A stretch of DNA of 62,062 bases, counting the filler, from Hausera hauseri (Eukaryota), in assembly GCA_046269625.1 (NCBI GenBank). It is 12 parts of 12 records of this genome, joined end to end, with 100 filler letters (N's around TTAATTAATTAA, not from the genome) between each part and the next. Parts side by side here need not be neighbours in the genome. Positions count along the whole stretch, not along the records: positions 1 to 4,768 come from JBJURY010442912.1; 11 more parts are not named here. The stretch is one strand, 5' to 3'. Under the pieces are notes generated by a model, which saw only the letters and a program-made list of their open reading frames with translations, did no database searches and was not told where the DNA came from. Below are positions 1,642 to 31,970 of this stretch, in pieces; position 1 is the stretch's first letter; every line of letters starts with the position of its first letter. The position numbers were made by a program, and so were the translations under genes.

Positions 1642-1889
1642 CTAAAGGGACTCCCGAAAACGGTAGATGAAGTATTAATTGTAGGTATTTCCATTATTCG
1701 CGTTTGCCTTATTTTTCGTGCTAGTGTAAATTCTGTATTCTGTTTGCTTATTTGTTTCAAGGTAACATAGTTTAACAAGAGTGGAACAGTCTCCTCTCCT
1801 GGCGCAAACCACCACTGATCGTTGCTTTGTGGCTTGGAATCTTGGTAACCTTCGCAAATGAATATGATTGATCTTCCGATAACTTTGAG

Positions 1890-4241
1890 TTATGCTCCTG
1901 TCAGTTTATACAGTACATCGAAACCAATAATGAGATCAGAATACGACTCTTGTGGGTTGGCATAACAAGCAACATCTATATACCCTATGGTTAGGTCCAA
2001 TTTTCCGCATGCTTCGGGTATATAATAGGTAATTCGTCTATATAATCGCAAATTTATACGAGTCAACGGGGTAGTAGTATAAAGTTCCGCATTAACATAC
2101 TTACCGTATACCTTAACCAATATTGGTATTAATAAAGGATAATCATTATAATTCTGACGATAATGCATGTTATATAACAATTCTAGCCTTTTTATCTCTT
2201 CTTCTAGTTTGTTTACATTTTTTCGATATTTCTCTAGATCTTTAGTTTTCTCCAACGAATGTGTAGCTACGTTTATCACTATATCGTAATCTATTAACGT
2301 ATCTCTACCTATAATGCAAGGAATGGTGGAATTTTCTAGTATGTGGTATAAAATCTTTGATCGTTTATTTTTTAATTTGGTCAAGGCTGTAACTACGCCT
2401 ATCACCTTTAGCTGATTGCCATTTATTAGTTTGTGATTTATCTCACTACTTTCATTTAACTTTAGTTTTAAAATTTCTATTGTAGTCTTACTTAAGTAAT
2501 TTTTTGCTGCTCCTGTATCTATTATTGCTTCGATTTTAACTTTATTTATAGTTATAGTTGTAGTTACCATATTATTTGACCCATCTTCTATGAATGCCAT
2601 CGTTGTGTTTTTGTCCTCCAGCTGTAATCTGTTCCTCAATGGGTATCTGCAAGGTGGTGTTTGATCTGCATTCTCATCATCCAGTTGCATTCTATTCCTT
2701 AACGGGTACTTACAAGGTGGTGTTTGCTCCAGTTTGCGCTCTTTAGCTACGGGTCTACATCGCTGTACACTCATCCAAGAGGTTTTATTTGGATTGGACA
2801 AATTCTGCAATTCTACACTTGATTCAGTTATTTGTAATATCTTATATGGTCCTTTATATGGTAATTTCAATTTTGGGCTTTCACCGGGTTTACAGGTCTC
2901 ATCTAATATATTAACCAAGTCTCCGATTCGATACATATGGGGTTTTGTTTTCTTGTCGTATTGGTCCTTATAATTTTCTTGGTGATATTTAATTTTTAAC
3001 CCTGCTCTAATCCATGCTTCTTGCAATCTTTCCTGTAGGATTGTTGCATAATCCGGTTCCTCCATCAGTTGAGACTGTGGTGGTCTATATTCGAGGTCAA
3101 TTGGCATAATATCTCGTCTGCCATATAGTAAAAAGAAGGGTGATTCCCCAGTTGTTGTATGAGGGCTTTGACGGTAAGCGTATACACAAGGTTTTATATA
3201 TAAATCCCAATCAGCTGGATGATCGTAGGCATAACTAGATATCATGATTGAAAATTGTTTATTAAATGCTTCTACTGCGCCATTAGCTTGTGGGTGATAG
3301 GGTGATGTAAATTTATGATTAACTCCTAATATCGCCAATACTTTCTCCATAAGTTCGCTGCAAAAATTACTTCCTCTATCGGATATTATTGTCATCGGTG
3401 CTCCATATTCAAATATTACGTCGTCAACTAATCTTCTGGCCATAACATCCGTAGTTTGGTTTATCATTGGCATCGCTATTGGAAATTTTGAGTGGTAATC
3501 AATAGCTGTAAGTACACATGTATTTCCTCTAGCGGTAGTTGGTAATGGTCCAACTATATCAACGCCTATACAAACGAATGGTGATGCTAAAACTGGTATT
3601 GGTTTCAATGGTGTTTTTCTTGCTTGGAAATTTCCTCTTCTTTTTGAACAAACTTGGCAGTTTGTACACCAATCTTTTACATCATCTGCTATCTTTGGCC
3701 AATAGTACTTTTGTTTAAGTCTGCCTAGTGTAGCTTTATAACCTCGATGTCCTCCGAGTTGTCCATCATGATAGTGCATTAAAAGTTTTGCTCGCATATG
3801 TTTCGGTACTACCATAAGTAAATCTTCACTATCCTGGTAATAGATATTTCCCCTTTCCATTTTATATTTATTTTTGCTCCCTTCTTTGTTTAGGCTATTA
3901 CGGATTTTACGAATTTCGTCATCCTTCGCTTGTTCTTTAGCTATAGCTTCATGTGTGATTGGTATAGACAAAAATATGTGCATTTCTTCATTAACTTCTG
4001 CATTGTCCACCTCATTTATCATAGTCTGAATCAAGTCGATCATCTTATAGTACTCATATAAAATATCTTCTACTAACGGGTCTTTATAGTCACTTTGTCT
4101 TGTATTCTGTTGATTATCCTTGTTAAGTGTTTGAATAATCATACTTATAAGTTGGTCTGTATCCTTAGTGCGTTTTTTACGTATTGCCTTGGGTACACTT
4201 GGATGGACTTTCTGCCAATAATATTCTTTCAGATCCTGCAT
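1890..4241 (-). CDS. Pol segment: integrase + GPY/F + duplicated YPLRNR motif + retropepsin domain + degenerate second retropepsin
   Basis: 783-aa ORF. AIIDTGAAKNYLS...CIIGRDTL lies C-terminal to integrase. It is followed by LVKVYGKYVNAELYTTT...DLIIGFDVL. Confidence 0.85.
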   Translation of the reverse strand: MQDLKEYYWQKVHPSVPKAIRKKRTKDTDQLISMIIQTLNKDNQQNTRQSDYKDPLVEDILYEYYKMIDLIQTMINEVDNAEVNEEMHIFLSIPITHEAIAKEQAKDDEIRKIRNSLNKEGSKNKYKMERGNIYYQDSEDLLMVVPKHMRAKLLMHYHDGQLGGHRGYKATLGRLKQKYYWPKIADDVKDWCTNCQVCSKRRGNFQARKTPLKPIPVLASPFVCIGVDIVGPLPTTARGNTCVLTAIDYHSKFPIAMPMINQTTDVMARRLVDDVIFEYGAPMTIISDRGSNFCSELMEKVLAILGVNHKFTSPYHPQANGAVEAFNKQFSIMISSYAYDHPADWDLYIKPCVYAYRQSPHTTTGESPFFLLYGRRDIMPIDLEYRPPQSQLMEEPDYATILQERLQEAWIRAGLKIKYHQENYKDQYDKKTKPHMYRIGDLVNILDETCKPGESPKLKLPYKGPYKILQITESSVELQNLSNPNKTSWMSVQRCRPVAKERKLEQTPPCKYPLRNRMQLDDENADQTPPCRYPLRNRLQLEDKNTTMAFIEDGSNNMVTTTITINKVKIEAIIDTGAAKNYLSKTTIEILKLKLNESSEINHKLINGNQLKVIGVVTALTKLKNKRSKILYHILENSTIPCIIGRDTLIDYDIVINVATHSLEKTKDLEKYRKNVNKLEEEIKRLELLYNMHYRQNYNDYPLLIPILVKVYGKYVNAELYTTTPLTRINLRLYRRITYYIPEACGKLDLTIGYIDVACYANPQESYSDLIIGFDVLYKLTGA

Positions 4242-4768
4242 GTCAGTATAGTCAAGATTAGGGTGATCGCTATAATCTTGATCAATATCACCTTTTTGAA
4301 GTCTTCACAGGAAATCTGCATTAGCGTTTGTTATTCTTGTCGATATTTTATTAAAATTTCCAGGTCCTGAATTTCTGCAGCCCATTTCATTAATTTTCGA
4401 CTAGTATCCCGTTGTTTCATTTACAATTGCAAAGGTTTTTGATCAGTATATAGTATTATCTTTCGTCCTGTAATATAATACCTAAAATACCGTAAGGCGT
4501 ATACTATGGCGTAACATTCTCTTTCAATTGTTGACCATCTACGTTGTGTTTCACTTAATGTTTTACTGACACATGCTATTATTCCTTCGCCTGGTCTGTC
4601 AGGAACTGATTGTCGTAAGACTGCTCCTGTTGCATAACCACTGGCGTCGGTCATGATTATATAAGAGTAATTAGGATCAGGAAACTGTAGTATTGGTGGG
4701 GAAGTTAAAACTTGTTTTAAGACTTTGAATGATCTATGATGTGTTTCTTCCCAATTTCATGCTGTTCC

Positions 4769-4868: not shown

Positions 4869-7800
4869 TTCTGGTCTTTTCAAATTTGAGTTTTTTGCGT
4901 GACTTACTTATTTTCGAAGATTTTCTATCATTTTTTAGTCTTTTGACTCGCCTATCTTAATTTTCAATTTTTTCAATTTTTTGTCCCGCTCCCTTTTACC
5001 AAAAGAATATTTTTCCACGAAAAAATTTAAAACTTTTCTGGTGTTTCCTAATTTGAATTTTTTTCACATTTTACTTAATTTTGAAGTTTTTCTTTCACTT
5101 TTTGGTCTTTTGTCTCGCCTATCTTAATTTGGAATTTTTTCAATTTTTTGGCCCGTACCACTCTAATGAAAATCTGGTTTTACCACGAAAACATTTGAAA
5201 TGTTTCTGGTCTTTTCTAATTTGAGTCTTTTGCCTGACTTTCTTAATTTCGATGATTTTCTATCATTTTTTGGTCTTTTGACTCGCCTATCTTAATTTTT
5301 AATTTTTAAATTTGTTGGCCCGACATTACTTACCAAAATTTGGTTTTTCCACGAAAAAATTTGAAAATTTTCTGGTCTTTTCTCATTTGAGTTTTTTTCC
5401 GTGACTTACTTAATTTTAAAGTTTTTCTTTCATTTTTTGGTCTTTTGTATTGACTATCTTAATTTTGAATTTTTTCAATTTTTTGGCCCGCATCCCTCAT
5501 ATGGAAATTTGGGTTTTCCACGAAAAAATTTTAGATTTTTTGTCTGGTCTTTTCTAATTTGAGTTTCTTGCTAAACTTACTTAATTTGGAAGATTTTCTA
5601 CCATTTTCTGGTCTTTTGTCTCGCCTATCTTAATTTTGAGAGTTTTCAATTTTTTAATCCCCCACTCCTCTTATGAAAATCTGGTTTTTCCACGAAACAA
5701 TTTGAAATGTTTCTCGTCTTTTCTCATTTGAGTTTTTTTTCCGTGACTTACTTAATTTTAAAGTTTTTCTTTCATTGTTGGTCTTTTGTATTGACTATCT
5801 TAATTTTGAATTTCTTCAATTTTTTGACCCACATCCCTCATATGAAAAATTGGGTTTTCCACAAAAAATTTTGACATTTTTTTCTGGTCTTTTCTAATTT
5901 GAGTTTTTAGCGATACTTACCTAATTTGGAAGATTCTCTATCATTTTTTGGTCTTTTGTCTCGCCTATCTTAATTTTGAATTTTTTCAATTTTTTGGCCC
6001 CACTGCCCCTTACCAAAATTTGCTTTATGCACGAACAATTTTGAAATTTTTCTGGTTCTTTCTATTTTGAGTTTTATGCGTGACTTACTTAATTTCGAAC
6101 ATTTTCTTTCATTTTTTGGTCTTTTGTCTCGCGTATCTTAATTTAGACTTTTTTCAAATTTTTGGCCCGCACCCTTCTAATCAAAATCATTTTTTTTCCA
6201 CACACAAAAATTTGAAATTGTTCTGATCTTCTCAAATTTGAGTTTTTTGCTTGACTTGCTTAATTTCGATGATTTTCTATCATTTTTTAGTCTTTTGACT
6301 CGCCTATCTTAATTTTCAATTTTTTCAATTTTTTGGCTCGCACCTCCCTTATGAAAATCATTTTTCTTCCACACACAAAAATTTGAAATTGTTCTGGTCT
6401 TTTCAAATTTGAGTTTTTTTGCGTGACTTACTTATTGTCGAAGAGTTTCTATCATTTTTTAGTCTTTTGTCTCGCCTATCTTAATTTTCAATTGTTTCAA
6501 TTTTTTGGCCCGCTCCACTCTAATGAAAATCTTGTTTTTCCACGAAAACATTTGAAATGTTTATGGTCTTTTCTAATTTGAGTTTTTTTCTTGACTTGCT
6601 TAATTTTGATGATCTTCTATCATTTTTTGGTCTTTTGTCTCGCCTATCTTAATTTTTAATTTTTAAATTTTTTGGCCCGACATTACTTACAAAAATTTGG
6701 TTTTTTCATGAAAAAATTTGAAAATCTTCTTGTCTTTTCTAATTTGAGTTTTATGCGTGACTTACTTAATTTCGAACATTTTCTATCATTTTTTGGTCTT
6801 TTGTCTCGCGCATCTTAATTTTGAATTTTTTCAATTTTTTGGCCCGCACCACTCTAATGAAAATCTGGTTTTTCGACGAAAACATTTGAAATGTTTATAG
6901 TCTTTTCAAATTTGAGTTTTTTGCTTGACTTGCTTAATTTCGATGATTTTCTATCATTTTTTGGTCTTTTGTCTCGCCTATATTAATTTTTAATTTTTAA
7001 ATTTTTTGGCCCGACATTACTTACCAAAATTTGGTTTTTTCATGAAAAAATTTGAAAATCTTCTGGTCTTTTCTCATTTGAGTTTTTTGCTGAACTTACT
7101 TAATTTGGAAGATTCTCTATCATTTTTTGGTCTTTTGTCTCGCCTATCTTAATTTTGAATTTTTCCAATTTTTTGGACCCTTACCAAAATTTGGTTTATC
7201 CACAAAAAATTGTGAAATTTATCTGGTTCTTTCTAATTTGAGTTTTATGCGTGACTTACTTAATTTCGAACATTTTCTATCATTTTTTGGTCTTTTGTCT
7301 CGCGTATCTTAATTTTGAATTTTTTCAATTTTTTGGCCCGCACCCCTCTTATGAAAATCATTTTTTTTCCACACACAAAAATTTGAAATTGTTCTGGTCT
7401 TTTCAAATTTGAGTTTTTTGCGTGACTTACTTATTTTCGAAGATTTTCTATCATTTTTTAGTCTTTTGTCTCGCATATCTTAATTTTCAATTTTTTCAAT
7501 TTTTTGGCCCGCTCCCTTTTACCAAAAGTTTATTTTTCCACGAAAAAATTTGAAACTTTTCTGGTCTTTCCTAATTTGAATTTTTTTCACATTTTACTTA
7601 ATTTTGAAGTTTTTCTATCACTTTTTGGTCTTTTGTCTCGCCTATCTTAATTTGGAATTTTTTCAATTTTTTGGCCCGCACCACTCTAATGAAAATCTGG
7701 TTTTTCCACGAAAACATTTGAAATGTTTCTGGTCTTTTCTAATTTGAGTTTTTTGCTTGATTTGCTTAATTTCGATGATTTTCTATCATTTTTTGGTCTT

Positions 7801-9736
7801 TTGTCTCGTGTATCTTAATTTTTAATTTTTAAATTTGTTGGCCCGACATTACTTACCAAAATTAGGTTTTTTCACCAAAAAATTTGAAAATTTTCTGGTC
7901 TTTTCTCATTTGAGTTTTTTTCCGGGACTTACTTAATTTTAAAGTTTTTCTTTCAATTTTTGGTCTTTTGTATTGACTATCTTAATTTGGAATTTTTTCA
8001 ATTTTTTGGCCCGCATCCCTCATATGAAAATTTGGGTTTTCCTCGAAAAAATTTGAGATTTTTTTTCTGGTCTTTTCTAATTTGAGTTTTTTTTGCTAAA
8101 GTTACTTAATTTGGAAGATTTTCTCCATTTCTTGGTCTTTTGTCTCGCCTATCTTAATTTTGAGAGTTTTCAATTCTTTAGCCCTCACCCCTCTTATGAA
8201 AATCTTGTTTTTCCACGAAAAAATTTGAAATGTTTCTCGTCTTTTCTCATTTGAGTCTTTTTTCCGTGACTTACTTAATTTTAAAGTTTTTCTTTCATTT
8301 TTTGTCTTTTGTATTGACTATCTTAATTTTGAATTTTTTCAATTTTTTGGGCCACATCCCTCATATGAATATTTGGGTTTTCACAAAAATTTTGACATTT
8401 TTTCTGGTCTTTTCTAATTTGAGTTTTTTGCGAAACTTACTTAATTTGGAAGATTCTCTATCATTTTTTGGTCTTTTCTCTCGCGTATGTTAAATTTGAT
8501 TTTTTTCAGTATTTGGCCCGCTCCCCTCTTATGAAAATATGGTTTTTCCACGTAAAAATTTGAAATTTTTCTGGTCTTTTCAAATTTGAGTTTTTTGCGT
8601 GACTTACTTTCGAAGATTTTGTATCATTTTTTATTCTTTTGTCTCGCCTATCTTAATTTTGAATTTTTTCAATTTTTTGGCCCGCTCCCCTTTTTCCACG
8701 AAAAAATATGAAATTTTTCTGGTCTTTCCTAATTTGAATTTTTTTCACAATTTACTTAATTTTGAAGTTTTTCTATCACTTTTTGGTCTTTTGTCTCGCC
8801 TATCTTAATTTGGAATTTTTTCAATTTTTTGGCCCGCACCACTCTAATGAAAATCTGGTTTATCCACGAAAACATTTGAAATGTTTCTGGTCTTTTCTAA
8901 TTTGAGTTTTTTGCTTGATTTGCTTAATTTCTTGATTTTCTATCATTTTTTGGTCTTTTGTCTCGGCTCGGCTATCTTAATTTTTTATTTTTAAATTTGT
9001 TGGCCCTACATTACTTACCAAAATTTGGTTTTTCCACGAAAAAATTTGAAAATTTTCTGGTCTTTTCACATTTGAGTTTTTTATCGTGACTTACTTAATT
9101 TTAATGTTTTTCTTTCATTTTTGGTCTTTTGTATTGACTATCTTAATTTTGAATTTTTTCAATTTTTTGGGCCACATCCCTCATATGAAAATTTGGGTTT
9201 TCCACGAAAAAATTTGAGATTTTTTTTATTCTCTTCTTTTCTAATTTGAGTTTTTTGCAAAACTTACTTACTTTGGAAGATTTTCTACCATTTTTTGGTC
9301 TTTTGTCTCGCCTATCTTAATTTTGAGAGTTTTCAATTTTTTAGCCCTCACCCCTCTTATGAAAATCTGGTTTTTCCACGAAAAAATTTGAAATGTTTCT
9401 CGTCTTTTCTCATTTGAGTCTTTTTTCCGTGACTTACTTAATTTCGATGATTTTCTATCATTTTTTGGTCTTTTGTCTCGCCTATCTTAATTTTTAATTT
9501 TTAAATTTTTTGGCCCGACATTACTTACCAAAATTTGGTTTTTTCAAAAAAAAATTTGAAAATTTTCTGGTCTTTTCTCGTTTGAGTTTTTTTTCCGTGA
9601 GTTACTTAATTTTGAAGTTTTTCTATCACTTTTTGGTCTTTTGTCTCGCCTATCTTAATTTGGAATTTTTTCAATTTTTTGGCCCGCACCACTCTAATGA
9701 AAATCTGGTTTTTCCACGAAAACATTTGAAATGTTT
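4869..9736. repeat. T-rich tandem satellite, ~168-bp monomer, ~29 copies, with higher-order variant order
   Basis: The anchor ttttggccc recurs at ~5148, 5315, 5483, 5993, 6162, 6504, 6672, 6838, 7005 and onward. ggtcttttgtctcgcctatcttaattt is present in most units. Confidence 0.97.
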
Positions 9737-9836: not shown

Positions 9837-12000
9837 GATCTTTTCATTTCATTAAATTCCTGTTCCAAAGCATTACGTCTGCGTAGCGACAAAGGTCTGG
9901 CCTTTTGTTTGATCGGCCTCTGGTGCTCTGTTACTATGTGATGATAAGTTGTGAATGGAGGCTTGAAGTTGAAGTCCCTTTTAACTATGCGAAAGCAAGA
10001 CATTGTGACGTATGATTGAAGATTGGAGTCTAGAGACAAAAATGAATGAGGCATGTTAATAGAGAAAACAGCTCCAGTGATTGACGAAAAGCAGCTGGCA
10101 TCGCTACTGTCGACGTCTAATTTGGATTTTTGTTTTAGGATATTTTTATGATTGTCGTTCATAATGGAAATATTGGCGACTTTATCGGAAGTTTTTTTAT
10201 AGATGAAGAAGCGTTCAACAAGTTCATAGATGAGCGCAGTGAATTGCTCGCTAAGTTGTCTATGAGACACATGTTTAGAGTTGCAATTGAGTTCCTGCTT
10301 AAAAGACAGCTGTATTTGCAATCGCCCAATAGATCATGTGCGGTGAGAAAATCTGAGCCTATTATGGGAGATTTAATGTTGGCCACGTGGAACTTCCAGA
10401 CAAACTTATCCGGCAAGTCGACAAATGTGAAAGTTAATTCCGTGGTTTTTGCAACAGGCAATGATTGACCACTAGCAGTGAAAATCGGTGGACAGGAAAT
10501 CATAGTCGATGTAGGAACGAAGGACAAGGGAAGGAGCGAAAAGGAAGCTCCTGAGTCTATAAGGAAGTCGATATGTTAAGTATGTCTGCTTAGCAGTACA
10601 GCTTTCAACAAAAAGACTGTAGAGGCGGTGTTGAAACGGCCAGAAGATTGAGCGATATTGCCTGAGCCAGAATGTGCCGATAAAATCTGGCGGCATTATT
10701 AGTTTTTTGAAGGTTTTGGAAGAAAGGAAGAGGAAGAGGAAAAGCGAGGAGATTTATCGATGTAATCTTTACAACCAGACACACATGATCTAGCCCGTGA
10801 CTGAAACTTATTGTGATATACGAAAATGGGGTTGTCCACAGCGTACTGTTCGCTGTAGAACCGACAACTCAAAAAACATTTCCGAACATCCCTTCGAAAT
10901 CACGTGTGATAGAAGCAAGTCATGCGTCCGCCAGGTGACATGGATCGAGTAGAGTGTCTGGCAATGCTTCTCGCCCTTGAAGTTGTGGTTTCACTTCTTC
11001 TAGGCCAATTAAGATTATTTATTTGGGTAGTAATGGCCAAAATCGACTGTTGCAACTCGTCAAACTGTTGCTGCATCATTTGCAATTGTTGTGAAAATGA
11101 AGTATTATGTGTGTGAAGGTGTGTGAGCAGTTGCTGCAGCTGCTTGTTGTTGACTATTATATTGCAAAATATCAAAGCTTTTGTCTGCCAATAAGGCGAG
11201 ATTTTCAAGGGCCGTTGAGTCATCTACTACAGTGAGCAGCGCTTTGATGGAGGTTGGCAAGGATGAAAGAAAATATTGACGAAGAAGATCGGCATTGTTT
11301 ATAGGAGTGACGCCTAACGAACTCAGTTGAGATATTGCAGTTTTAAGGAAATCCGACGGTTTTTGATTAACGATGGCATGTTCATTAAAGTATTTCTGAA
11401 TTATGCTGTCAATGAAAGGGTCGGTAATGTGCAGAACTGATTCATAAAGCATATCATATGGATTTGAAGAGGTTAGTATGTCAACCAGATTATTGAATTG
11501 CTTCTTGTTATTAGCTGGAAGTAGTAGCAACAAACTGTTCGCCCGCAAGAAGGAATCTGTGATATGATTGGCCTTAAGCCATTGCAAATGGAATTGTAAC
11601 CAGGTACGACTCGAATTCGTCTTGTCGAGAAAAAAATTTGTGCAAGGGAGATTTGGAGATGTAGTCGGTGTGGGGTCGGCAGGACGTCGAGCAAATCTGG
11701 TCTTATTAGGGTTTTCCGGATAAAAAGGATCGGAGTCCAATCCAGCCGGTAGGCGAAAGTGAAGAGTGAGATGGATAGTTTTGGAGGAAAATGCAGAAAG
11801 TTGGTTATGGACGTTGAGTATAGAACCATGATATAAGCGATAAAAGTATGACGAGGTGAGGAGAGAAGATAGATGTGCGTGAAAGTGATGAGGGGTATCC
11901 GTGTGTGGCGCATAGAAGGTATGGAGGTGTGTATTATTGAAGAAGATAAACAGGGATAAGGGACGCGGTGCAGTGTGGGTGGTCACGCTCGACTTCTCAC
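9837..12000 (-). mobile_element. Ty3/gypsy family B, 5' part: UBL-Gag, two Cys/His knuckles, protease, start of RT (degenerate)
   Basis: Gag motifs KPSDFL and LLRQYFLSSLP. Knuckles CFYH..F....KC...C and VYHNKF...ARSC...C. Protease FLIDSGAS...IIGSDFL. RT start HHIVT..RPIKQKARPLS. Confidence 0.92.
11741..11956 (-). other. Ubiquitin-like domain at the N-terminus of Gag (ends RLPAG)
   Basis: 72 codons SLFIFFNNTHLHTF...HFHAHLSSLL...YFYRLYHGSIL...IHLTLHFRLPAG follow the ubiquitin pattern. Homologous to 58099-58311. Confidence 0.65.
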
Positions 12001-12049
12001 CCAAATCATCGATAGCTCTTTCGTTGATAGCTCTATCTTGATTTGGGCT

Positions 12050-14340
12050 ATCATAGTTCCAATGTGACATATGACACTCATGTAAACTACCAGCGTTGTT
12101 TTGCATTATAAAGAATAAAATGCCGATATGTAAATATCTATCATAGTTACCTTTTGATAAAGGTAATTCGAGCAATCGCTCTTGGGGTATTTGCGTCAAA
12201 TGAACTGGAGTAGTACCGTTATTCAAAAACGGAGTAACTGTAACATTAGACGAATCGGAATAGGAAAGACCAATGTCATCATCATTATCTCGAAACAATC
12301 GTGGACTACGTTTGATCTGTAATTTTATGAGGTTGAGATCTATGCCAGCACCCCATTCTTTTGCATCAGCATTCGGTGGTAGACATTTGCTATTAGCCTT
12401 GCGGTTCTGCACACATGAACCGGTAGTTCTTCCGCCAGCATATCAGTTGGGAGTTTGTTCAATGACGTATTTAACTGATTGTCCTTCGATATCGGCAACA
12501 CAAGTTTAGACAGATTTATTTGTCGTGAATTTGTCAAGAAGACTTTCAGAAAAGTTGAACTGTTTACAAAAACTGTTGTACAATGTCCTATTGACTATAC
12601 ACCCGATCAACGATAGAATACTGTTCCAAATTGCCGGTGATTCTATTTTGTCAAATACAACACAGACTTCTCGTACAATACAGGCTAAGCATGATTCCTG
12701 GTTGCTATATATCATGACGAAATGTTCAAGGAGGGTCATCAGTAGTCCGTATACATGATCGTGGTTCTTTAGATAACCAATACAATTGGTTATAATTAGG
12801 AGCCAGTTCTCATCGTAGTACATGTCATTAAGTATATACTTGGTTAGCATGTGAAGAATGTGACATTGTGTTATAATATTTTCGACGTTGTTCCGTCGAG
12901 AGGAAGCGTTCAAATGGCGAAAAAAATGAAATACGAATGAGCTGTACGTGCAGAAAATGTTAATAATGTAGTTAATGATAGCCACACTACGTTCATAAGC
13001 CAGGGTAATGATGTGACGCAATGCTTCACTAAGATGGACGGAATGAGTTGAATTGTAGAAAAAATGAGTGAGAATTGCCAATGTGTGGATCATTCCATCA
13101 ACGCTATACGAAAACGTCTGGCATCCTATGGCATATTCACATTTTTTATTAATAATATGAGCTATTTTATCATCGAGTTTCGTACGTTCCTCATCATACG
13201 TACTAATCAAAATGTCGAAAGCTATGTGAGGAATTGATGCACTTCTTGCCATTCGACTGATATATCCACGGTACACCGGAAACACGATATACATCCATTT
13301 GGTTTTTGGTACACAGTACTGATGTCGTATCAGATTCTCGTGTAGTATTTTATCGTTTCCGTATGACACTTTCTTTCTGATGGTGACAGGGTAACGTTTA
13401 CCATGTTCAAGTATGTCCAACTGACTGACAGTCAATAGAATTCCCAGTAATTCCGAATCGATTTTCGATTCACTATATGCAGAAATCTTCAGTGTCTCTT
13501 TATCGGATGTCTTGGAAAAGAAACTCTTAATTTCTTCGATAGCCGAGGGTGAATTGTTATTGGAGAATTTGCAAGAAAACAATGAACAGAAGATCGACTG
13601 GAAAGGAAAAGCAGTTTGGTATTCGTGTGGCATCATTTTCAGAAAGCAAGAAGTAAAACTGATTTGGTCTATTGTACCCCAGTAGACAGAGAACACTGTG
13701 ATGTCGGTGTCAATGGATAATACATATCCACGAAACCATCTCGACAGTTTATAGTAGATATCTCGACAGACGATATCATTGTGGTTGATATCTTGACAAT
13801 TACGGTCGTATTTGTTTTAGAAACGGACGTCTTGCCCGGTGATGGAGTTTCGTCAACAGCAATCGACATACAATCGTCCAGCAGAAAGTTGAGATATTCT
13901 TCTAAAGCAGTTCTTGTTTTTTACATCAAATTCCCGTATCCACGATAAGCATCTTCAACGATCACGGTTTCGCTGAGCTGTGCGTCGTAATGAATTTCGG
14001 CATTTGATGTTATTTTTGAGGAGTTCTGAAGAACATTCATTTCATCATGCAAAACGGTGATGATGATATTGTCCAGTCTACATTCAAGTTCGTGGCACTG
14101 GGCTTTATTTTTCAATTTCGATATAAGGTCTATGTACATTTTATCACCAAAACTGCATTTTTGTACATTTTTGTACATTTTATCATCTGCAGAATGATTA
14201 AAAACACGGATGTAGAAATGAATCGTTTCCAACGACAAAAGTGCAGCATTTTCACTGTAATGGGTTTCATGAATTTTTTGTTTGCCATTTCACAGATTTC
14301 AGTAATTTCTTTCTTTCTTTTGATTGGTAAAATTCTGACA
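12050..14340 (-). pseudogene. Cluster of intronless, closely packed, partly broken ORFs of unknown function
   Basis: ORFs 13921..14238, 13669..13869, 12506..13696 and 12340..12537, plus the N-terminal part of 11105..12412, all lie on one strand and abut or overlap. No motif recognised. Confidence 0.45.
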
Positions 14341-15799: not shown

Positions 15800-18700
15800 T
15801 CATTCCAAACGCTAATATCCGTACGTCCAACTCTTATTCCGCCCCACCCACTTACGCTTATCATTGCATGATAAACCGACTTTTTTATTGGTCACCGTAT
15901 ACAGCCGGTGCTCAATCAATCGGATGGTCGTTTGTGACACAACAGCTTTTGTTTGTCCTCCGTTTTCTCCTTCATAGATTCGACGCTAATCACTGTGGTC
16001 TAATTCCGTCTGGGCCAGCTGAACTCCTTTGGCGCGAATTTTCGGCCTACCGTTAGTTCAAAGGCTATAACATTTTGTCCGTATAAATACCCATTCCCGA
16101 TACTAATGCCGACTTTACTTTCATCCTTGAAGCAAGCGATTTTCTTTGTGATGGCGTTGCTGTACAATGGATGATTCTGTGGATAATTGCACGTATATAT
16201 TAATCAGTTTGCCATCATTTGCCATAGTAGTTGTTCGCGATTGACGTTTTTAATTTCCAAGAAAAAACTATTGGTGTCATCGGCAATTATACTGATCTTG
16301 CATCTACCGCCGAACATTTGCCGATAACGTACCAAATCGCGATATCGCAGCTCATACATCCGTAACTTGCTCAGATTTAATACCACTTGTCCTATATAAA
16401 TTGGCCGGTCTAGTACGACTTCTTTCCTGTTTAAAAGAATGGCAACTAATTTATCGTCAATGCACATTGATCGCCTGAACTGTGACTTGCTCGTGTATGT
16501 GACAAACCGCTTTCCCTATTGCATAGGCGTACATTGAGCTACTTTCTCTGATTCAATACTGTTTTTCCGTAGAGCGAATTTTTTTTTCATTTTGTAATAG
16601 TCTTTTTCAAACTTCGTACAAGCTGTAGCTCGTTTTTCCGAATTCCGACTGATATACGACTTGAATATCGGAGCCTGTGCAAATCGGATTGCGCGATGCA
16701 GCTGTGTGATGCATACACCAGGCTGCATGTAAAATTGCAACAGACGCCAATGAACAATGTAGTTTTGTTTAAGTACATGCGTCATAAGCAGCTTCTTCAA
16801 TTTCGACCCCGGCGAACATTGGCTGATTGGTGCGACCGGCAGTTCATCCAGAAAATTATGCGGCTCATCTGGTACCACGAGATCGACTTTTATCATGTAC
16901 CCGATTCAGCTGTTTTCTGTTGTGCCTGCTCTCGGCAGATTTTTCCTGTATTGTGTTCAGTTCCTGTTTGTCGACTATCCATTCGAATGAATCGTACAGA
17001 AGGGTTGCGAAAGCGCCCAGCCGTACAGATTATTAAAGTCGATATAAAACAGTGATATGGTATCATCACTGGGAGCAGTAGCAGCACTATCATGGCGTTT
17101 GTTGACAAATGTCATGCCGCCACGAATACCAACATTAAACATTCGTACATTTCCGGGTTTTTCAATAACTTAATATCCCGATCCAGTGACATTAGACCTG
17201 ATGCCAAACTCATTCCTGCTATTGAGTAAAAGTTGAGTGACTGCAGCCTATCTTCTGCAAACGCTTTAGCTCGAAATGTCTGAAACAGATTGGCTAATAA
17301 GTATACGTCCAGTTTCAGATACTAAAGCATGTAGTTCAACAGGTTTCTGCAGCCGAGCTCTGCCTAAAACGACTATGCTTTGTGATATTCTTCTTTTGTG
17401 ATACATGGCCATAGCGGTGATAATTTGTCTGTCGTCTGCAGCCGCTCGTACGATATTTCAAAGTTACACGGGAATATGCCTTTGTTACGTGCAATATGTG
17501 TAGGGAACTGCGCCAATGTTAGGGTACATGTGGTATGGCGTTTACCAGCTTTGCCAGATATTCACTGAAAAATTGCAATAAATCTAAAAAGCGTACCCGG
17601 AATCGGCCCATTTCAAAATATGNNNNNNNNNNGCCTTGTCAAATGGAATGAATTACATGCGGCTCCAAAATATCGACCGGTAAAATTATCATAATTCGGT
17701 ACGAGCCGTTCTTGTGCATCGAACGGTAATATTTTGTGGCACAGGTAACATTCATCTGTGACTGCAAACGTCAGGCGTCCATCATCTCTATTCAGATCAG
17801 AGGTTTGGTGCTATTATCGAAATACCACGGTGCAATTTCAGTTTCCACTATGGTTTGCAACTACTGCAACAAATCGCGAACACAATTCCATCCGTGAAAA
17901 ACATAATATTGAGGTTGACCGGCGGCTTTTATTGGGACAACCAACATACTGACGGCGATTGGAATATGTTTTTGGTCATATATGTTGTGCTATGGTAAGA
18001 CAGCTTCGATATCGGCATATACTACGTATGCCGGACTGTCTATTTTTGACCAATCAGTGAACTTGAGTTCCTTTTTGACGGGCATGACATACATTGTGGT
18101 TCGTGACGAATTTTGCCTGCACAGAGTCACATGTTTCTCCCATGTTGTTTCTGATCTAAATCCGTACAGACATACAGGATACCACTTACATTGTATCCAT
18201 TTTTTGAAGAATTGGTCACGTTCCATATTCAGCTGTCTGTCCAGATTTGTCACTGCAACGTAATGGAAATTTTCCTTTTGCTCTAACAACAACAAATTTA
18301 TTGTGTGGCCTTTCGGGTTCCGACTACAATAGATTATATCCACATTGGGATTCTGGTACATTTCTTTATCTACCGGTATTTCAACTACTGAGTTGTACCG
18401 GGAGACGTTGATTGACATCGTTGGATTACGCCGTTCGAAGGCCGCTATGGTTTTTAATTTCATGGGCATCCAGCATCCATCGTAATTTAATTCTTAAAAA
18501 TATTTCTGACACTGTTTTGCACTATATGTACTATATCTGTCCACTTGGTCATAGTTCAATACCTCCAGAATACTGTAAAGAAAACAGTATTCATCGTTAG
18601 TATTTTTTACATTTACTACCGCCAGAGACTGCTTCAGAGCTGCAGTGTGAATGATCGTCCCGATCAATATATTATGTCACTAGACTTTGTTATGATAAAG

Positions 18701-19200
18701 CTGACGGTGACATTTTTATAATTCGCCATTCATTACGCTTTTCGGTATAGTTGGCGATTTTATTCTCGAGCTTTTCGCCTACGTCGGCAATAAAATTGTC
18801 GGAATACTTCGGCTCGATGTCATAGGTACCACTGTTTCCTGCCACCTTACAAATTTTCAAATTCTGCCAGTGGATAATATTGCACTTTGCAGTTGTGTTA
18901 GAATTTCACCACCTCTGATTCCAACCGGTGGCGTACATTTTGCGTAACATATCTCAATTACGTTGTTGTTGTTTTCGCCGACATGTTCACTTTTATGTCC
19001 ACGTACGATCTGTTCAGATTGTACTTGACTATAATATTGGGAATATTGGCTTCCAGCTGCTCATTATCTTGTTGTTGTTGTTGCTGATGCTGTCACTACT
19101 GCTTCTGTTGCTGCTGCTGCTCTGTACTTTTCTGATTAAATCGACAAAACTTGTTGAGGCCTAAAGTTTCCTACTGATTATTGAGGGGATGTTGTTGCTG
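15800..19200 (-). pseudogene. Polinton/Maverick-type protein-primed DNA polymerase B (copy 1), many stops and frameshifts
   Basis: Motifs MPMKLKTIAAFERRNPTMSINV, HYVAVTNLDR, VVYADIEA, RGGMTFVNK, KDYYK, LDRPIYIGQVVLNLSKLRMYE and ADDTNSFF. C-terminus KKVGLSCNDKR..YGY. Confidence 0.93.
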
Positions 19201-19620
19201 CTTTTAGTTCAGTCCATAAATAGTTGTTTTTCCTACCGCTTAAACTGGTCTAAGTTCATAGTTATAACTGTTTATAGTTAATTTTAGCAAGTATTAAACA
19301 ACCGGGCAAACGTTGTCTTGTTTATTACGCCGCGTTGTGGTGCCATAGTACTGCTCAATTACATTATGATAATCACTAACTTTGTGCACTTTAATACTGA
19401 AGTAGCGTGGGTATGTAGGGCAATGCGTAACCATCATCTTCTTAGACCGAGTAAACGGTCCGAGTTGATGCTTGGGCACCTCATAAAAGTCGGCGTAGGG
19501 GCCTTGGGAACAAACATCATACGTTGGACACACATACGTGTCCTTTCCTCCAACGCTGTAACATTTCTTCATCTGTTGATGGCATTGATCCTCCACATAT
19601 ATACTCAAGACACAATACAT
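19200..19620 (-). pseudogene. Small Cys-rich ORF immediately upstream of pPolB (copy 1)
   Basis: YVCPTYDVCSQGPYADFYEVPKHQLGPFTRSK is clearly homologous to 24750-25162. Confidence 0.7.
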
Positions 19621-20699
19621 GGAATACTGCTTACATTTCGAAATTTAAACAAATTAACATTTAAAATAGATAAAAATNNNNNNNNNNNNNNNNNNNNNNN
19701 NNNNNNNNNNNNNNNNNNNNNTTAATTAATTAANNNNNNNNNNNNNNNNNNNNNNNNNNNNNNNNNNNNNNNNNNNNCTACACCACACACACACTCTTAG
19801 AACTACTGTATCTCAGCAGAAAATAACCTTAAGCGAGTAACATCTTGACCTCGGCGACGATAAAGGAATCCTTATCGAGGCCGCAGACGCAATAAAAAAA
19901 AAAGAAAGGGAAAACAATTCTGCCACTTATACATCATAAAAGCATGACAGCCTCCCTCTGCTCGGTCCTCCCCCCCATACCTCCAAGCACAGGCGCTTCT
20001 AAGCATTTCAAAGAAACCAGTGTTTGAGTGACTCCGATGTGGGAGCTCAGAGTCTATAGCTGTGGATTAGACTCACAGCAAATAGTAGCATGGAAGAAAC
20101 AGAGGTAATCTCTTCCCTCTCCCTCACAGCCCTCTCTCCATACCTGGTCCTCCGGTTTTTTTTTAAGCTCCTTACTGAATTAGTTCTCGCAAAGCTGCTC
20201 ACACAGAGAGGGGTTTATGCGCAGTGGGGGGAAAACGCTGCTCTGGATTCAAAAATACTCAAATATATAAAACACTGGAGAGCAAGTTTGACCGAATTGT
20301 CAAAACAAAGATCTGGGGTTCAGATCTAGAACTGATTCGGCACCAACTACAAATGGACATCAGATATTTCATTTCTGAAAATATGCAGATGGCCAGGAGT
20401 GGAGCTAGCAGCATCACTCTGGCCTGTGTGCCTAATACTTATCCCTTTGAAAATAAAGTTGATTTGATTTGTAATCCCTGCTGTAAGAAAAAATGGTCCT
20501 CATTCACTTAAAACTCTCCTCTTATACCTTGGCCTGTAGTTGTTGTCCAGAGAGTTCTCTAGACTTCTCTTTTGACTTTTTCTGGATTTCTTCTAGTCCT
20601 CGATCTTTGACAGCCTATTCAACATTGTCAGTCCAATGTCTGTCAGTCCAATGTCTTTTGTCTGCCAGAAGACAGTTACCACTTTGATGTCTGGTTTCC

Positions 20700-20860
20700 A
20701 TTGCTTTTCGTGGCAACCATTATCCACTCATTCTGCATACATGCCCAAACTAATCTCAGCTGGGTCTGGCCCACGTGGGCTCATTGGCTGCACATTAAGG
20801 CGAAAACGTCTTACCCCAGGACATCTTCCCTTAAATGTATTCTACTTGTCTGCGCTATGA
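20700..20860 (-). mobile_element. RTE-like LINE 3' remnant
   Basis: The minus strand encodes a frameshifted LR(W)FGHVCRM-type motif typical of RTE ORF C-termini. Confidence 0.45.
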
Positions 20861-21265
20861 TGTGCTGTTATGTATTGTGGTTGTACAGTGTTGTATAGTA
20901 TCGTACCCCGATTCCAATTTGTTTTCTGTTGTGTTGTGGCCCGTAGTGTATTGAAGACCTGTTTTGTTTCATCATGTTGTTTTGTGATGTGCTGTTGGAT
21001 TGTGTCGTGTTGTGATGTGCTGTGTTGTGTTGTGAAAAGTATTTGAGTTTTTGAGTAATATGAGATTTTTTTTCGTTAACTCAACTTAATCCTCATTTCC
21101 TTGTTATAAAATAGAAGACAAAAATTAGTGTACAAATACGTTATTGATCACATGTACAGCAGATGAATGTAAAACAAACAAAGATCACAAATGTCGCAAA
21201 GTGATCTGGCTGGTCTGAACTGCATCTTTGTACTGACTGAACTGTTGTTTAGTTACTGAGTAATG

Positions 21266-24200
21266 TTATCTCAAACGCCAATATCCGTACGCACAACTCT
21301 TATTTCGCCCCACCCACATTCGCTTGTCATCGTTGCATGACAAAGCAACCTTTTTATTAGTGACAGTATACAGCTGGTGCTCAATCGATCGTATGGTCGT
21401 TTGAGACACAACAACCTTTCATTTTCCGTCTTCTCCGTCTTGTCCATCATAAACGCGGCTATAATCACCGTGATTTATTTCCGTCTATTTCAACTGGATG
21501 CCTTTTGCCCGCATTTTCAGCCCCCATTCCGTCAGAAGACTGTAGAACTTTGGGAATAGGAATATCCATTCCTTGAATTGAACCCGGCCTTCACTTTTAT
21601 CTGTGAAGCAACCGATTTTGTTTGTTACTGAGCTGCTGTACAGCGGATAATTCTGCGGATAGTTTGACGTGGTCAGTAGTCCATCTTCCATTACTTGTCG
21701 GAGCAGCTGGTCCCGATTGATGTTTTTCAGCTCAAGGAAAAAGCTGTCTGTCTCACCGGCAACGATACTGATTACACAGTCGCCGCCGCCAAACATTTGC
21801 CGGTAACGTGCCAAGTCGCGATACTGGAGCTCGTACATTCGCAACTTGCTAAGGCCCAATACCACTTGTCCGATGTAGCTTGGCGGGTCCAGAACGACTT
21901 CTTCCCTGTTGAGAAGCACGGCGACCAATCCATCGGGAATGTGCATATACCGCCTGAATTGAGCCTTGCTGGTGTACGTAATCAGTCGTTTTTTGTTATT
22001 GCATAGGCGCACATTGAGCCATTTCTTCAGATTTTCCACTGTTTTTCCGTGCAGTGAATTATTTTTCGGCTTGTAATAGTCCTTTTCGAACTTTGTACAA
22101 GCTGCGGCTCGTTTTCCGGAATTTCCCTCAATGTACGCCTTGAATATCGGCGCCTGATTGAAGCGGATTGCACGATGCAGTTGTGTAACGCATACACCGA
22201 GCTGCATGTAAAACTGCAGCAGACGCCAATGAACCACGTAATTCGATTTGGGTTCATGTGTCATGAGCAGTTTCTTTACTTTTGTTGAGCCGCCGGGTAG
22301 ATTTTGGCTAATTGGTGCGACCGGCAGTTCATCCGGAAAGTCATGCAGCTCATCTGGTACCAAGAAATCGACCTCCATCAGGTATCCGATTGAGCTGTTT
22401 TCTGCAGTTGTAGTGTCTGCCGCCCTCGACAGATTTTCCAGTATTGTGTCCAGGTCTTGTTTGTCGACTATCCATTCGAATGAACCGTACGGCAAGGGCT
22501 GTGAAAGCGCCCATCCGTACAGGTTATTAATATCGATGTACAACATTTACGTTGTATCATCACTGGTTACGTAATGTTTGTTGACAAACGTCATGCCACT
22601 ACGAATGCCAAAGTTAAACAAGCGGTACATTTCCAGGTCTTGCAGCAGCTCAATGTCCCGATCAAGTGACATTAGAACTGATGCCCAACTCATTCCCGGT
22701 ATTGAGTAAAATTTGAGCAATTCCAACCTATCTTCCGCCAACGCTTTAGCCCGAAACGCTTGGAATACGTCGGCTTACAAGTACACGTCCAGTTTCAGGT
22801 ACTGGAGCATGTACTTCAACATGTTTCTGCAGCCGAGCTCTGTCCACGCTTTCTGTGCTCTGTGGTACTCGTCTACTGTGATTTCGGCCCATTGTGGCGG
22901 CAATTCCTCTGTTGTCTGAAGCCGCTGGTATGACACAGCAAAGTCATATTAGAATATGCCTATTCTGCGTGCAATATGCGCAGGGAACTGCGTCAGCGTT
23001 ATCGGCACATCCAGCAAGGCACTTACGAGCTTTCCTAGAGACTCATTGAGGAACTACAATGAGTCAAGAAACCGTACCTGAAACCGATTTATGCGTGCCG
23101 ATAGAGACAAGTACTTCTCCATCGTTGTTGGGATTAAGGATAGCTCCCTGTACGGCCCATTTCAAAATATGGTAACAGTCATAACCTCGAAAGTTATAAA
23201 ATATCACCGGTAGGAATGGCCGCACACGCCTTGCCAAATTGCATGAATTGCATGCGGCTCCGAGATGTTGATCGGTGAAATGATTATGATCTGGTACGAG
23301 CCGTTCCTCTGCATCGAACGGTAATAAATTGTGGCACAGGTAACATTCGTATGTGGCTGAAAACATAAATGGTATATAGTCGTCTGTCCACGTGAAGGGT
23401 TTATTGCTATTATTAGTTTACCAAGGTGCGATTTCCGTTTCTACTATTGTTTACAACTGATGCACGAAATCACGGATGCAGTTCCGGGCGTGGAAAATGT
23501 AATACTGCGGTTGACCAGTGCCTTTTATTGGGACTACCAACATACCGACAGCGACTTGGTCTTATGCTTTTGATCGTATACATTGAGCCGTGGAAAAATG
23601 GCTCCAATATCTGCATATACCATGTATTCTAGACTGTTGGATTTTGACCAGTCACTGAACCTCAGCTCCTTTTTGCCTGACATAACGTATATTGTTGTTC
23701 CAGTGGAATTTTGTCTGCAGTGTCACATGTTTCTCCCATGCAGTTTCCGATCTGAATCCATGTAGACATAAAAGTCACCATTTACACCGTATATGCTTTC
23801 TGATGAACTGGTCATGATCCATGTTCAATAGTCTGTCCAAATTTGTCATGGCCGCGTAATGAAAAATTTCCCCTTGTTTTACTCTAACGGCAACAAATTT
23901 ATTGGGCGTCCATTCGGGTTTCAACTTCTATAGATCATGTCCACATGGAGGTTCTTGTAAATCTCTTCATCTTTCTGTATTTCTATAACTGTGTTGTACC
24001 GGAACACGTTAATTGACAATGTTTGGTTACGTCGTTCAAACGTGAGAATGGTTTTTAGTTTCATCGGCATCTAGCTTTCATCAAAATCCAATTCGGAAAA
24101 ATACTGCCGATACTGATTTGGACTACTAGCATGTTTTCTGTCCATTTTATCATATTTTAATACGGCTATAATACTGTAAAAGCAGTATTCATCGTTCTTG

Positions 24201-24750
24201 TTTTGTACATTCTCCACCGCCAGAGACTGCTTCAGATCTGCAGGTGTAGGTATGAATGACCTTCCGGACAAATATATCACGTCACTTGACTTTGTTATAA
24301 TAAACCTGAGTGACAATTTTTATTATTCGCCAGCTACTACCCTTTTCGGCATAGTTGACGATTGTTTCGTCAAGCTTTTCGCCTACATAGGCAATAAAAT
24401 CGTTGGAATACGGTTGGGCTCGATGTGACAGGTACTACTGTTTTCTGTCACCTTCCAAATTTTCAAATTCTGCCAGTGAATAATACTGCACTTTGCAGCG
24501 GTGTTGGTGGTTGTGTTGGAATTTCTTCACTTCTGATTCCACGCTTTAATTGTACTGACTTTTTTGGTGTCATTCCAACTTTTATGTCCACGTACAATCT
24601 GTTTAGATCGTACTTGACAGTAATGGGAAGGTCAGGTTCCTGTTGTTGTTGCTGCTGCTGTTGATATTGTTGTTTGGTATTTTGTATGTGTTCATCAAGA
24701 CTTGTAGATGCTTGACGTTTCCTGCTTCCGACCATGCTGCCTCGACCATT
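21266..24750 (-). pseudogene. Polinton/Maverick-type pPolB (copy 2) with endonuclease VII-like insert
   Basis: GRSFIPTP..NVQNKNDEYCFYSI; CYLC...DHNHFTDQHLGAACNSCNL; YNFRGYD; LYIDINNLYGWALSQPLP; YYKPKNNSLHGK; GETDSFF. C-terminus KVALSCNDDKR..AYGYWRLR*, with the stop at 21266. Confidence 0.96.
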
Positions 24751-25162
24751 ACTATTTGCTTTTTGGACCGCTGAAATTGATTCAAGTGGTCCTTTTGCTG
24801 GTCATAAAATTGTTCATAGTTGATTTGTACTTCAACTCTAGAATAACCGGGCCAAAAATAGGCCTGTTTATTGTGCATCTCTGTGACGCCATAGTACTAC
24901 TCCATTCTACTTTCACCAACGTTGTACACTGTTGTACTATTACAGCACAGTGGGTATACGGGACAAAGCACATTTATCGTCATCTTAGACCGAGTAGACA
25001 GGCCAAGGTGATGCTTGTGCATTTCATAAAAATCGAGGTATGGACAGTGGGTTGGAATATTACACGTTGGACACAAATATGCGTCTTTCCTCCAAAGCTG
25101 TAATATTTCGCAATCTCTTGATGGCACTTATCCGCCTCATGTGTGCGAGAGGCGCAGTCCAT
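24750..25162 (-). pseudogene. Small Cys-rich ORF upstream of pPolB (copy 2)
   Basis: YLCPTCNIPTHCPYLDFYEMHKHHLGLSTRSK. A 1-nt indel relative to copy 1 lies near 25085. Confidence 0.7.
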
Positions 25163-26002: not shown

Positions 26003-26108
26003 TTCTCGATAACATAAAAAATTTTCCCACGGTCCGAAAATTTTCCCACGCTCAATGCTTTCTTTCCGCGGGGGGGGGGTTGGTGCCATGCGCTCCTATC
26101 ACACTACT
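26003..26108 (+). mobile_element. Polinton terminal inverted repeat end (...ACTACT-3')
   Basis: Closely similar to 37732-37828. Similarity stops exactly after ACTACT, the reverse complement of the Polinton 5'-AGTAGT terminus. Confidence 0.85.
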
Positions 26109-31350: not shown

Positions 31351-31351
31351 G

Positions 31352-31970
31352 TGACTTGCAATCTATTAAGGAGTTGCCACCGAAATAGGATGATGTTAGT
31401 TATAGCGACTATCAGGAAGCACAAATGGCTTGGTAGAGATATAGTTGTAACTGTCTTTTAGAGTATATGTTAATATACATGAAACTGGATGTATACTTAT
31501 TAGGTTATGTTTCTGATCGATATAGAAAAGAGGTTAAGTTTCAGGATAGTTTAGAGGCTACTAATTTTGTATCCAGTCCAGGTTTAAGTTGGGCAACAGC
31601 GCTGTAATCCAGTCATTGTAAGATTGAGCTCATTCAGGATACTGAAATGTATCAGTTCTTTCAATTTGGTATTCTCGGTAATATGACCTTTGTAAATAAG
31701 ATTAGGGTTAAACGTGATGACAGCAATAGTCTCTTGTATATAGATGTAAATAATTTGTACGGCTGGGCTTTATCTCAACCTTTGCCGTTTGCGAATTTGA
31801 CTTGGATTTATGATGAAAAAGAATTAAATAGTCTTATTGAGCAATTACCCTTTATTTACACTGTTACGGAAGAACGAGGCTTAGTTTTTGAGGTTGGTTT
31901 AAGTATTCCGGCTGACAATCATGATAAATTTGATCAACTGCCTGTATCTCCAATAAATTAGTGTCCTCCC
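31352..31970 (+). pseudogene. pPolB internal fragment (copy 3, more AT-rich)
   Basis: ELPPK*DDVSYSDYQEAQ..W, YMKLDVYLL, PGLSW, MTFVNK and LYIDVNNLYGWALSQPLP. Confidence 0.93.

Follow-up and report, generated by a model that had tools for sequence, protein, structure and literature searches.

In a textbook long terminal repeat (LTR) element, a single protease lies before the reverse transcriptase (RT). A contig of Hausera hauseri (assembly GCA_046269625.1) carries two protease-like units behind the integrase of a Ty3/gypsy element, which raises the question of where these units came from and what they could do at this place. They lie in a window of 62,062 nucleotides (nt), i.e. the whole stretch of DNA that was analysed, consisting of unplaced contigs of about 4–6 kb each with N-TTAATTAATTAA-N linkers between them. 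The element occupies the first contig (1–4768) on the minus strand, where RNase H and a bridge come first, followed by the integrase with its GPY/F region, then by the two protease-like units and by more open stretches; RNase H precedes the H2C2/DDE integrase, as in Ty3/gypsy elements. We take the contig, with high confidence, to hold the 3' half, now broken, of a giant LTR retrotransposon of Ty3/gypsy type from a Burro-like lineage, in which gag, env and pol form a single polyprotein. A protease directly behind the integrase (unit 1 in this element) is a feature of this lineage, and neither a nested insertion nor a permuted pol is supported. The second unit (unit 2) is probably a degenerate retropepsin.

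An intact protease behind the integrase

A single minus-strand open reading frame (ORF; 1893–4304, 804 codons, 804 amino acids (aa)) spans the integrase, the GPY/F region, unit 1, a helix and unit 2, and is closed by the stop at 1890–1892. A first-pass annotation of this DNA had claimed a protease with an intact DTG after integrase and GPY/F; all peptides quoted in it lie in this one frame, and Pfam, AlphaFold2 and Foldseek agree with the claim. Unit 1 (2259–2582) carries the DTG at 2511–2519, with its catalytic D at 2517–2519, and a G-R-D closing motif (IIGRD at 2301–2315), while ITINKV starts at 2555. It scored above the Pfam cut-off for three retropepsin families (gag-asp_proteas, 35.3 bits vs a cut-off of 28.2), and its sequence gave weak matches to Ty3 protease, Ddi1 and ASPRV1. 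The predicted local distance difference test value (pLDDT) of the AlphaFold2 model was mostly 83–94 (about 90) over residues 11–110, with one block at 64, and the best Foldseek matches of this model were Ddi1 and the proteases of equine infectious anaemia virus (EIAV) and human immunodeficiency virus (HIV). By its D-[TS]-G, its closing G-x-D and its predicted fold, unit 1 is a retropepsin, and probably an extra, active protease behind the integrase. One generic protease profile had been built from matches selected with unit 1; the score of unit 1 against it was disregarded as circular.

Homologues of the two-unit region as a whole were found in none of 2197 candidate proteins of 442–1407 residues at E ≤ 0.01. 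A HMMER search with the 236-residue block against 1.84 billion representatives gave 39 matches, nearly all to unit 1 alone; the top match, P0121, proved to be a repeat-protein artefact and was excluded from later scans. Ten relatives of the element were collected as protein sequences, namely P0001 by a search with the whole ORF (47% over the integrase) and nine more (P0161, P0162 and P0164–P0170) by profile search among proteins of 1438–4105 residues. In an integrase tree of 32 rows covering integrase and GPY/F, drawn from the 185 proteins that matched the integrase over a long stretch, the window's element and these ten formed one group (99/96; 93 in a quick tree of 52 rows) with the window's element as sister to the ten. 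The integrase C-terminal region matched the same region of the ten with E values of 6e-22 to 2e-34, the window keeps 90 of the 129 integrase columns that are invariant in them, and the nine best phmmer matches of the RNase H piece among the fetched proteins were the nine long relatives of this clade.

Five of the ten relatives (P0161, P0162, P0167, P0168 and P0170) encode a protease with intact D[TS]G after GPY/F, referred to here as PRc. Among 221 fetched integrase-core proteins, 99 of which have room for such a domain, only these five carry a terminal protease; five further flags were multi-element gene models of Cordylochernes. The five PRc domains are mutually 22–70% identical (median 28%), with D[TS]G kept in all of them. 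The catalytic D lies 42 residues past the Y-x-L-R motif in unit 1 vs 35–44 residues in the five PRc. A canonical protease before RT (PRb) is found in all eight relatives that show the region, including every one with PRc; this count omits P0169, which starts inside PRb, and P0001, which starts at the integrase. Protease and RT likewise precede RNase H in these eight. The extra protease that the first-pass annotation had offered as one alternative is thus supported by the relatives, and its other alternative, a rearranged domain order, is not.

In the fullest relatives, one ORF of 2,900–4,100 residues encodes Gag, a gB-like Env, two proteases, RT, RNase H, integrase, a further protease and a second membrane protein. 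The gB-like Env (PF24664) stands in frame before pol in six of the eight relatives scanned, and each of these six also encodes a protease domain past the Env anchor (PRa), its Asp lying 142–148 residues after the anchor in four of the five measured; in P0164, PRa has degenerated to DTA. In nine of the ten relatives the protein goes on behind the integrase with a signal-like segment, then an ectodomain and finally a membrane anchor, as judged from hydropathy and by eye, and P0162 stops earlier. The accessory domains of the lineage include ubiquitin-like, ankyrin and C2H2 zinc-finger domains; ubiquitin/SUMO-like and ankyrin domains were seen in P0164, and CCHC knuckles in P0161 and P0164.

In a protease tree restricted to the lineage, unit 1 sat on a long branch and lay with PRa and PRc, separated from PRb by a split with support 82/96; a clade uniting it with PRc was not rejected (p-AU, approximately unbiased test, 0.11). 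The presence and absence of PRc on the integrase tree need three changes of state, which would be compatible with one gain and two losses. Unit 1 is the protease at the PRc position of the window's element; its position suggests that it is the same domain as PRc, but its sequence does not decide this.

The motif-less second unit

The first-pass annotation had described a coiled-coil-like linker after unit 1, followed by a second, catalytically dead protease fold. The linker (2160–2246) stands as a helix, modelled with 29 residues (model residues 119–147, pLDDT about 62–73). Unit 2 (1893–2132), with ELYTTT at 2070–2087 and LIIGFD at 1917–1934, ends at the stop 1890–1892. Its motif is YTT (codons TAT ACT ACT, Y at 2079–2081), in the columns that hold D and G in every one of the 18 intact proteases of the lineage. 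Both the Asp and the Gly of DTG are lost; as its sequence reads, unit 2 could not act as a catalytic aspartic protease. The distance from the motif to the closing Gly is 52 residues vs 67–73 in 21 other domains, leaving unit 2 18 residues short. The loss of the Gly, the shortening and the broken state of the copy had all been overlooked in the first-pass annotation.

Several common comparisons returned little for unit 2. No Pfam family matched it at E ≤ 1, BLASTP against unit 1 gave no alignment, hhalign gave a probability of 2.25% (E 0.021), and the identity between the two units is 12–13%. Modelled in AlphaFold2 without an alignment of homologues, unit 2 reached a pLDDT of 40 alone and under 50 in the single-chain model. 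A wide fold search with the pLDDT-40 model (best Z 3.0, no retropepsin) is uninformative, as the model is too poor, and a complex prediction for units 1 and 2 (score 0.01, mark 0.34), made without an alignment and with unit 2 ending at the stop, is evidence for neither side.

Profile comparisons gave a clearer signal. With generic retropepsin profiles containing no window sequences, the unit 2 score was reached by 4 of 2000 and 7 of 300 shuffles; with profiles from 19 protease domains of the relatives, it was reached by 0, 3, 2, 0 and 0 of 1000. The lineage-profile matches fall at both domain ends in the correct order, the closing G-x-D is kept, and the score rises from 9.7 to 11.5 bits when the stop is read as X. 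Among 828 six-frame segments of the window, the unit 2 segment scored 8.3 bits, two intact proteases of other elements 8.6–11.4 bits and the best non-protease 5.5 bits. The ESM Atlas neighbours of unit 2 are retropepsin clusters (0.91–0.93, recognition 2592), with the caveats that one third of shuffled proteins likewise yield a uniform family list and that the top hit has 147 of 256 features in common, under the usual 170 for one family. In all likelihood unit 2 is homologous to retropepsins, probably as a degenerate one. Hence the replaced Asp reported by the first-pass annotation stands, together with a weak sequence homology that exceeds shuffles, whereas the models did not confirm the second protease fold.

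The element survives here as a broken pseudogene, placed at the end of a contig of 4,768 bases. Six in-frame stops interrupt it (4757–4759, 4421–4423, 4305–4307, 1890–1892, 1438–1440 and 436–438), and its frame changes near 4345 and again somewhere between about 1630 and 1680. Because 5.7% of single changes in the long ORF would create a stop, six stops correspond to roughly 2% decay or sequencing error per site. Decay at this level would not account for three substitutions in the motif together with the loss of 18 residues; thus the loss of catalysis in unit 2 seems older than the death of the copy.

A further protease-like unit after PRc was found in none of the five relatives having PRc, and unit 2 is so far unique to the window's element. 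Decay of an accessory protease is seen elsewhere in the lineage, in the PRa of P0164 with its DTA and long branch. The hydrophobic module of the window begins about 147 codons after the unit 2 Tyr, and the distance from the PRc Asp to the signal-like segment is 152–191 residues in four of five relatives. This near agreement would be consistent with duplication of the protease cassette in tandem followed by decay of the 3' copy, or with the arrival of unit 1 ahead of an older, decaying PRc. A decayed duplicate is more likely than a regulator.

Flanking features of the copy and other elements of the window

Upstream of the proteases, the contig holds an RNase H fragment of pol (4424–4756, Pfam RT_RNaseH_2, E 1.7e-32) bounded by the stops 4757–4759 and 4421–4423. 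It is followed by the bridge to the integrase (3885–4420), which contains the frame change near 4345 and the stop 4305–4307. From the ORF start to the integrase His motif the bridge measures 178 residues vs 100–113 in nine relatives; it is about 80–90 residues longer than theirs. The H2C2 zinc domain and rve core of the integrase lie at 3090–3884 (PF17921, E 3.9e-20; PF00665, E 6.1e-14), with the D-D-E residues all present in the alignment. The C-terminal region (2730–3089) contains a GPY motif at 2844–2852, which we take to mark the GPY/F module. At 2614–2729 the Y-x-L-R-N/S motif at the end of the integrase, single in most relatives, is doubled by a tandem duplication (two 53-nt copies, 63 nt apart and 79% identical in a blastn self-match). 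In the blastn self-comparison, neither the element nor its protease block turned up a second time within the window.

Past the stop of unit 2, an open frame of 86 codons (1632–1889) continues in the same frame, and its start may hold the C-terminal strands of unit 2. Hydrophobic module A (1468–1641) follows in another frame and consists of a signal-like segment (hydropathy 2.45 at 1591–1647), a short polar loop and a second hydrophobic segment recognised by eye, ahead of the stop 1438–1440. A 333-codon open stretch (439–1437), in the frame of modules A and B and closed by the stop 436–438, gave no Pfam family at cut-off, no usable ESM Atlas hit and no match to the fetched proteins. Hydrophobic module B (226–399) with an acidic tail occupies 73–435 (hydropathy 2.12 at 349–405) and is similar to module A; the A–B alignment score was reached by none of 2000 shuffles, a test inflated by the shared hydrophobic pattern. 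Modules A and B, flanking the 333-codon stretch, could represent reduced forms of the cargo of signal, ectodomain and anchor seen in the relatives.

The ectodomains behind the integrase of P0161, P0164–P0170 and P0001 are weakly related to one another and look beta-sandwich-like by eye; their resemblance to fibronectin type III is our presumption. With these C-terminal regions, elements equipped with a gB-like fusogen encode a second surface protein as well. In P0164, residues about 1940–2065 form the degenerate protease (DTA) behind the Env anchor, and ankyrin repeats follow. Outside pol, three proteins (P0123, P0143 and P0159) contain two tandem intact retropepsin domains, in one case fused to a protein kinase; judging by sequence, they are possible natural single-chain retropepsin dimers.

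Elsewhere in the window, a second broken gypsy element (26003–31970, plus strand) has the canonical order protease, RT, RNase H and integrase and a long 3' extension without Pfam match, and a short protease-like beta-hairpin remnant (26546–26590, 3.1 bits) stands directly before its intact protease. Its integrase lies outside the studied clade. The gypsy element of contig 6 was ruled out as a sister copy of the studied element, its integrase lying outside the clade. Positions 4869–9736, an entire contig, are a 168-nt satellite in 29 copies with a 338-nt higher-order period. Two related contigs at about 16300–25100 (minus strand), with blocks 71–88% identical, hold fragments, two of them without Pfam match, that presumably resemble DNA polymerase B, the protein-primed polymerase carried by Polinton/Maverick elements. 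A very divergent tubulin fragment (57064–58782, plus strand; Pfam Tubulin, E 1.2e-20) runs in frame into a gag-like gypsy stretch, and the gypsy element there is related to those at 9837–12442 and 40651–43015. A C2H2 zinc-finger gene fragment lies at 39626–40159 (minus strand).

Proposed role, rival explanations and known systems

The best explanation as a whole, which we hold with moderate confidence, is a giant Ty3/gypsy element in which a protease at the PRc position frees the integrase and unit 2 is an old duplicate. The architectural part of it is highly probable, whereas the processing role is only slightly favoured. Pol would be synthesised while held to the membrane on two sides, by the Env anchor ahead of it and the second signal segment after it, with accessory proteases on the cytosolic side beside each tether, where those of neighbouring polyproteins could dimerise. 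The proteases of HIV-1 and other retroviruses are symmetrical dimers of identical subunits, according to the available part of PMC3185560; hence the crowding of polyproteins at the membrane would switch them on. PRc would then cut the integrase, and the accessory proteases would cut themselves, free of the 3' membrane cargo, and an extra protease dedicated to processing the 3' extension, as raised at first pass, is plausible. As five of the ten relatives lack PRc, it is dispensable, an accessory; another protease would do the cutting where it is absent, and PRc would set efficiency or timing. Unit 2 would be an old tandem retropepsin duplicate from which both motif residues and a further 18 or so residues had gone by the time the copy died, most likely now a passenger or spacer.

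Several points weigh against this explanation. The identity of unit 1 is 16–22% to the five PRc and 17–26% to PRb, i.e. it is no closer to PRc, and in a tree with generic retropepsins, chosen for their similarity to unit 1, it falls outside the PRa/PRc group; independent gain of unit 1, as opposed to orthology with PRc, is possible. By its integrase, the window's element is a distant sister of the ten relatives. The contig ends inside RNase H at 4768 and includes neither end of the element; the element's own gag, env and PRb are not visible in it, and the remark at first pass that the 5' part is not visible was correct. Moreover, the post-integrase protease is absent in five of the nine relatives with a 3' membrane protein, no similarity of the window's 3' region to the relatives' ectodomains was detectable, and membrane topology was read from hydropathy and by eye.

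The post-integrase protease might alternatively be a redundant duplicate, or act on host proteins or the Env region, with no special role for integrase and cargo. Half of the relatives lack PRc, mostly with the 3' membrane protein kept, other gypsy proteins (P0122 and P0137) have tandem proteases as well, placed ahead of RT, and the lineage gathers accessory domains. However, D[TS]G is intact in all five relatives and the window despite the 22–70% mutual identity among the five, and the position of the protease is constant to within 10 residues, which argues for selection on activity at the post-integrase place and makes redundancy unlikely. It is very improbable that unit 1 is the main protease, moved behind the integrase with none left before RT. 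The missing 5' part would allow such a rearrangement, the end of unit 1 is beta-strand-like, a feature it shares with PRb, and its highest single identities (25–26%) are to PRb, but the PRb of all eight relatives that show the region, including those five with PRc, and the place of unit 1 on the accessory side of the lineage tree speak against it. Least credible is a nested insertion, which the first-pass annotation had considered, or an assembly chimera. Although the contig is short and unplaced, the copy broken and a close homologue of the two-unit block not found, this idea is largely refuted by a frame open from the integrase through both units, a similar base composition on both sides of the block and a protease at the same spacing in five relatives.

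For unit 2, it has to be asked whether it is a retropepsin at all. A beta-rich segment of other descent that matches the two motifs by chance would agree with the lack of Pfam and BLASTP hits, the low hhalign and Atlas values (2.25%; 147 of 256) and the fact that unit 2 was picked by eye before testing; it is nevertheless quite unlikely in view of 0 of 1000 shuffles for three lineage profiles with ordered matches at both ends, the 8.3 bits vs 5.5 of the best non-protease, and the retropepsin clusters on top in the Atlas. A pair of units 1 and 2 would have one aspartate and hence be inactive, and thus unit 2, if it binds at all, would be a brake. A dead subunit can indeed poison a retropepsin dimer, as known from HIV protease work; our literature search found no paper on such poisoning. 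Unit 2 might accordingly be a maintained pseudo-protease that folds back via the helical linker on unit 1, forming a one-aspartate pseudo-dimer in which unit 1 stays off until the linker is cut. It matches the retropepsin pattern at its two ends, retains the closing G-x-D, stays in frame, seems to have lost catalysis before the copy died, and follows a 40-residue linker that would be long enough. Yet the absence of a second unit after PRc in all five relatives leaves the tethered partner or regulator suggested by the first-pass annotation unsupported so far, selection is not measurable with only one copy known, and the 18-residue loss in the helix/flap region and the 12–13% identity to unit 1 fit drift equally; the unfolded state of unit 2 in the single-chain model (pLDDT under 50) also counts against it but is uninformative without an alignment. 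We therefore regard a maintained pseudo-protease as improbable. Less probable again is a broader picture, in which a polyprotein crossing the membrane several times would release Pol by dedicated proteases at each Pol end plus the canonical one, the second surface protein behind the integrase could be an attachment factor for the gB-like fusogen, and unit 2 in the window's branch would be a tethered dead partner, a built-in brake and a natural single-chain pseudo-dimer.

Among known systems, the lineage of the relatives resembles in layout the giant planarian gypsy elements Burro/GYPSM1 (PMC6431247). In the available part of that source, Burro shares with the relatives one huge ORF, Gag, CCHC knuckles and an env in frame between gag and pol, and with P0164 the ubiquitin/SUMO-like and ankyrin domains. 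It differs in that one protease is named and that the available text has no protease or membrane protein after the integrase; Burro ORF1 (4,873–5,140 aa) also has MATH, BIR and BCL2-like domains, none of which were seen in the window or its relatives. The GAG-ENV-POL errantiviruses with an env of herpes simplex virus (HSV)/gB type from Nematoda, Bryozoa and Platyhelminthes, as far as the available part of PMC13524379 describes them, have the gene order and env type of the relatives. They differ from the relatives in that a protease is named once, in the legend of Figure 1, which gives the layout of one protease before RT, and that only chromodomains are mentioned after the integrase. Since the GAG-ENV-POL elements with gB-type env are not monophyletic according to the same part of PMC13524379, layout alone does not place the window's element. 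Neither PMC6431247 nor PMC13524379, in the available text, speaks of any protease beyond the first or of a membrane protein following the integrase; their figures might show extra protease boxes.

Among the fetched proteins, P0122 and P0137 also contain two retropepsins in one gypsy gag-env-PR-PR-pol protein (PR, protease), the first just behind the Env anchor; they differ from the window in that both retropepsins precede RT and keep D[TS]G, and P0122, outside the window's clade, has no protease after the integrase. P0122 presumably resembles the nematode Cer elements. Unit 1 has the same fold and DTG as the retropepsins Ty3 protease, Ddi1, ASPRV1 and the HIV and EIAV proteases, and differs from them by its place after the integrase and by the tandem motif-less unit. 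In the literature on extra, second or tandem proteases, searched through titles and the starts of abstracts, no description of a post-integrase protease in gypsy elements was found.

The dead unit would matter more if it were conserved, and is at present a single-copy curiosity. A clade with up to three intact retropepsins per polyprotein, by comparison, shows that the number and position of proteases can vary. The five relatives with the third protease and the five without it make a natural with/without comparison, and the isolated domains may serve to study the division of labour among proteases and the release of integrase from a membrane anchor.

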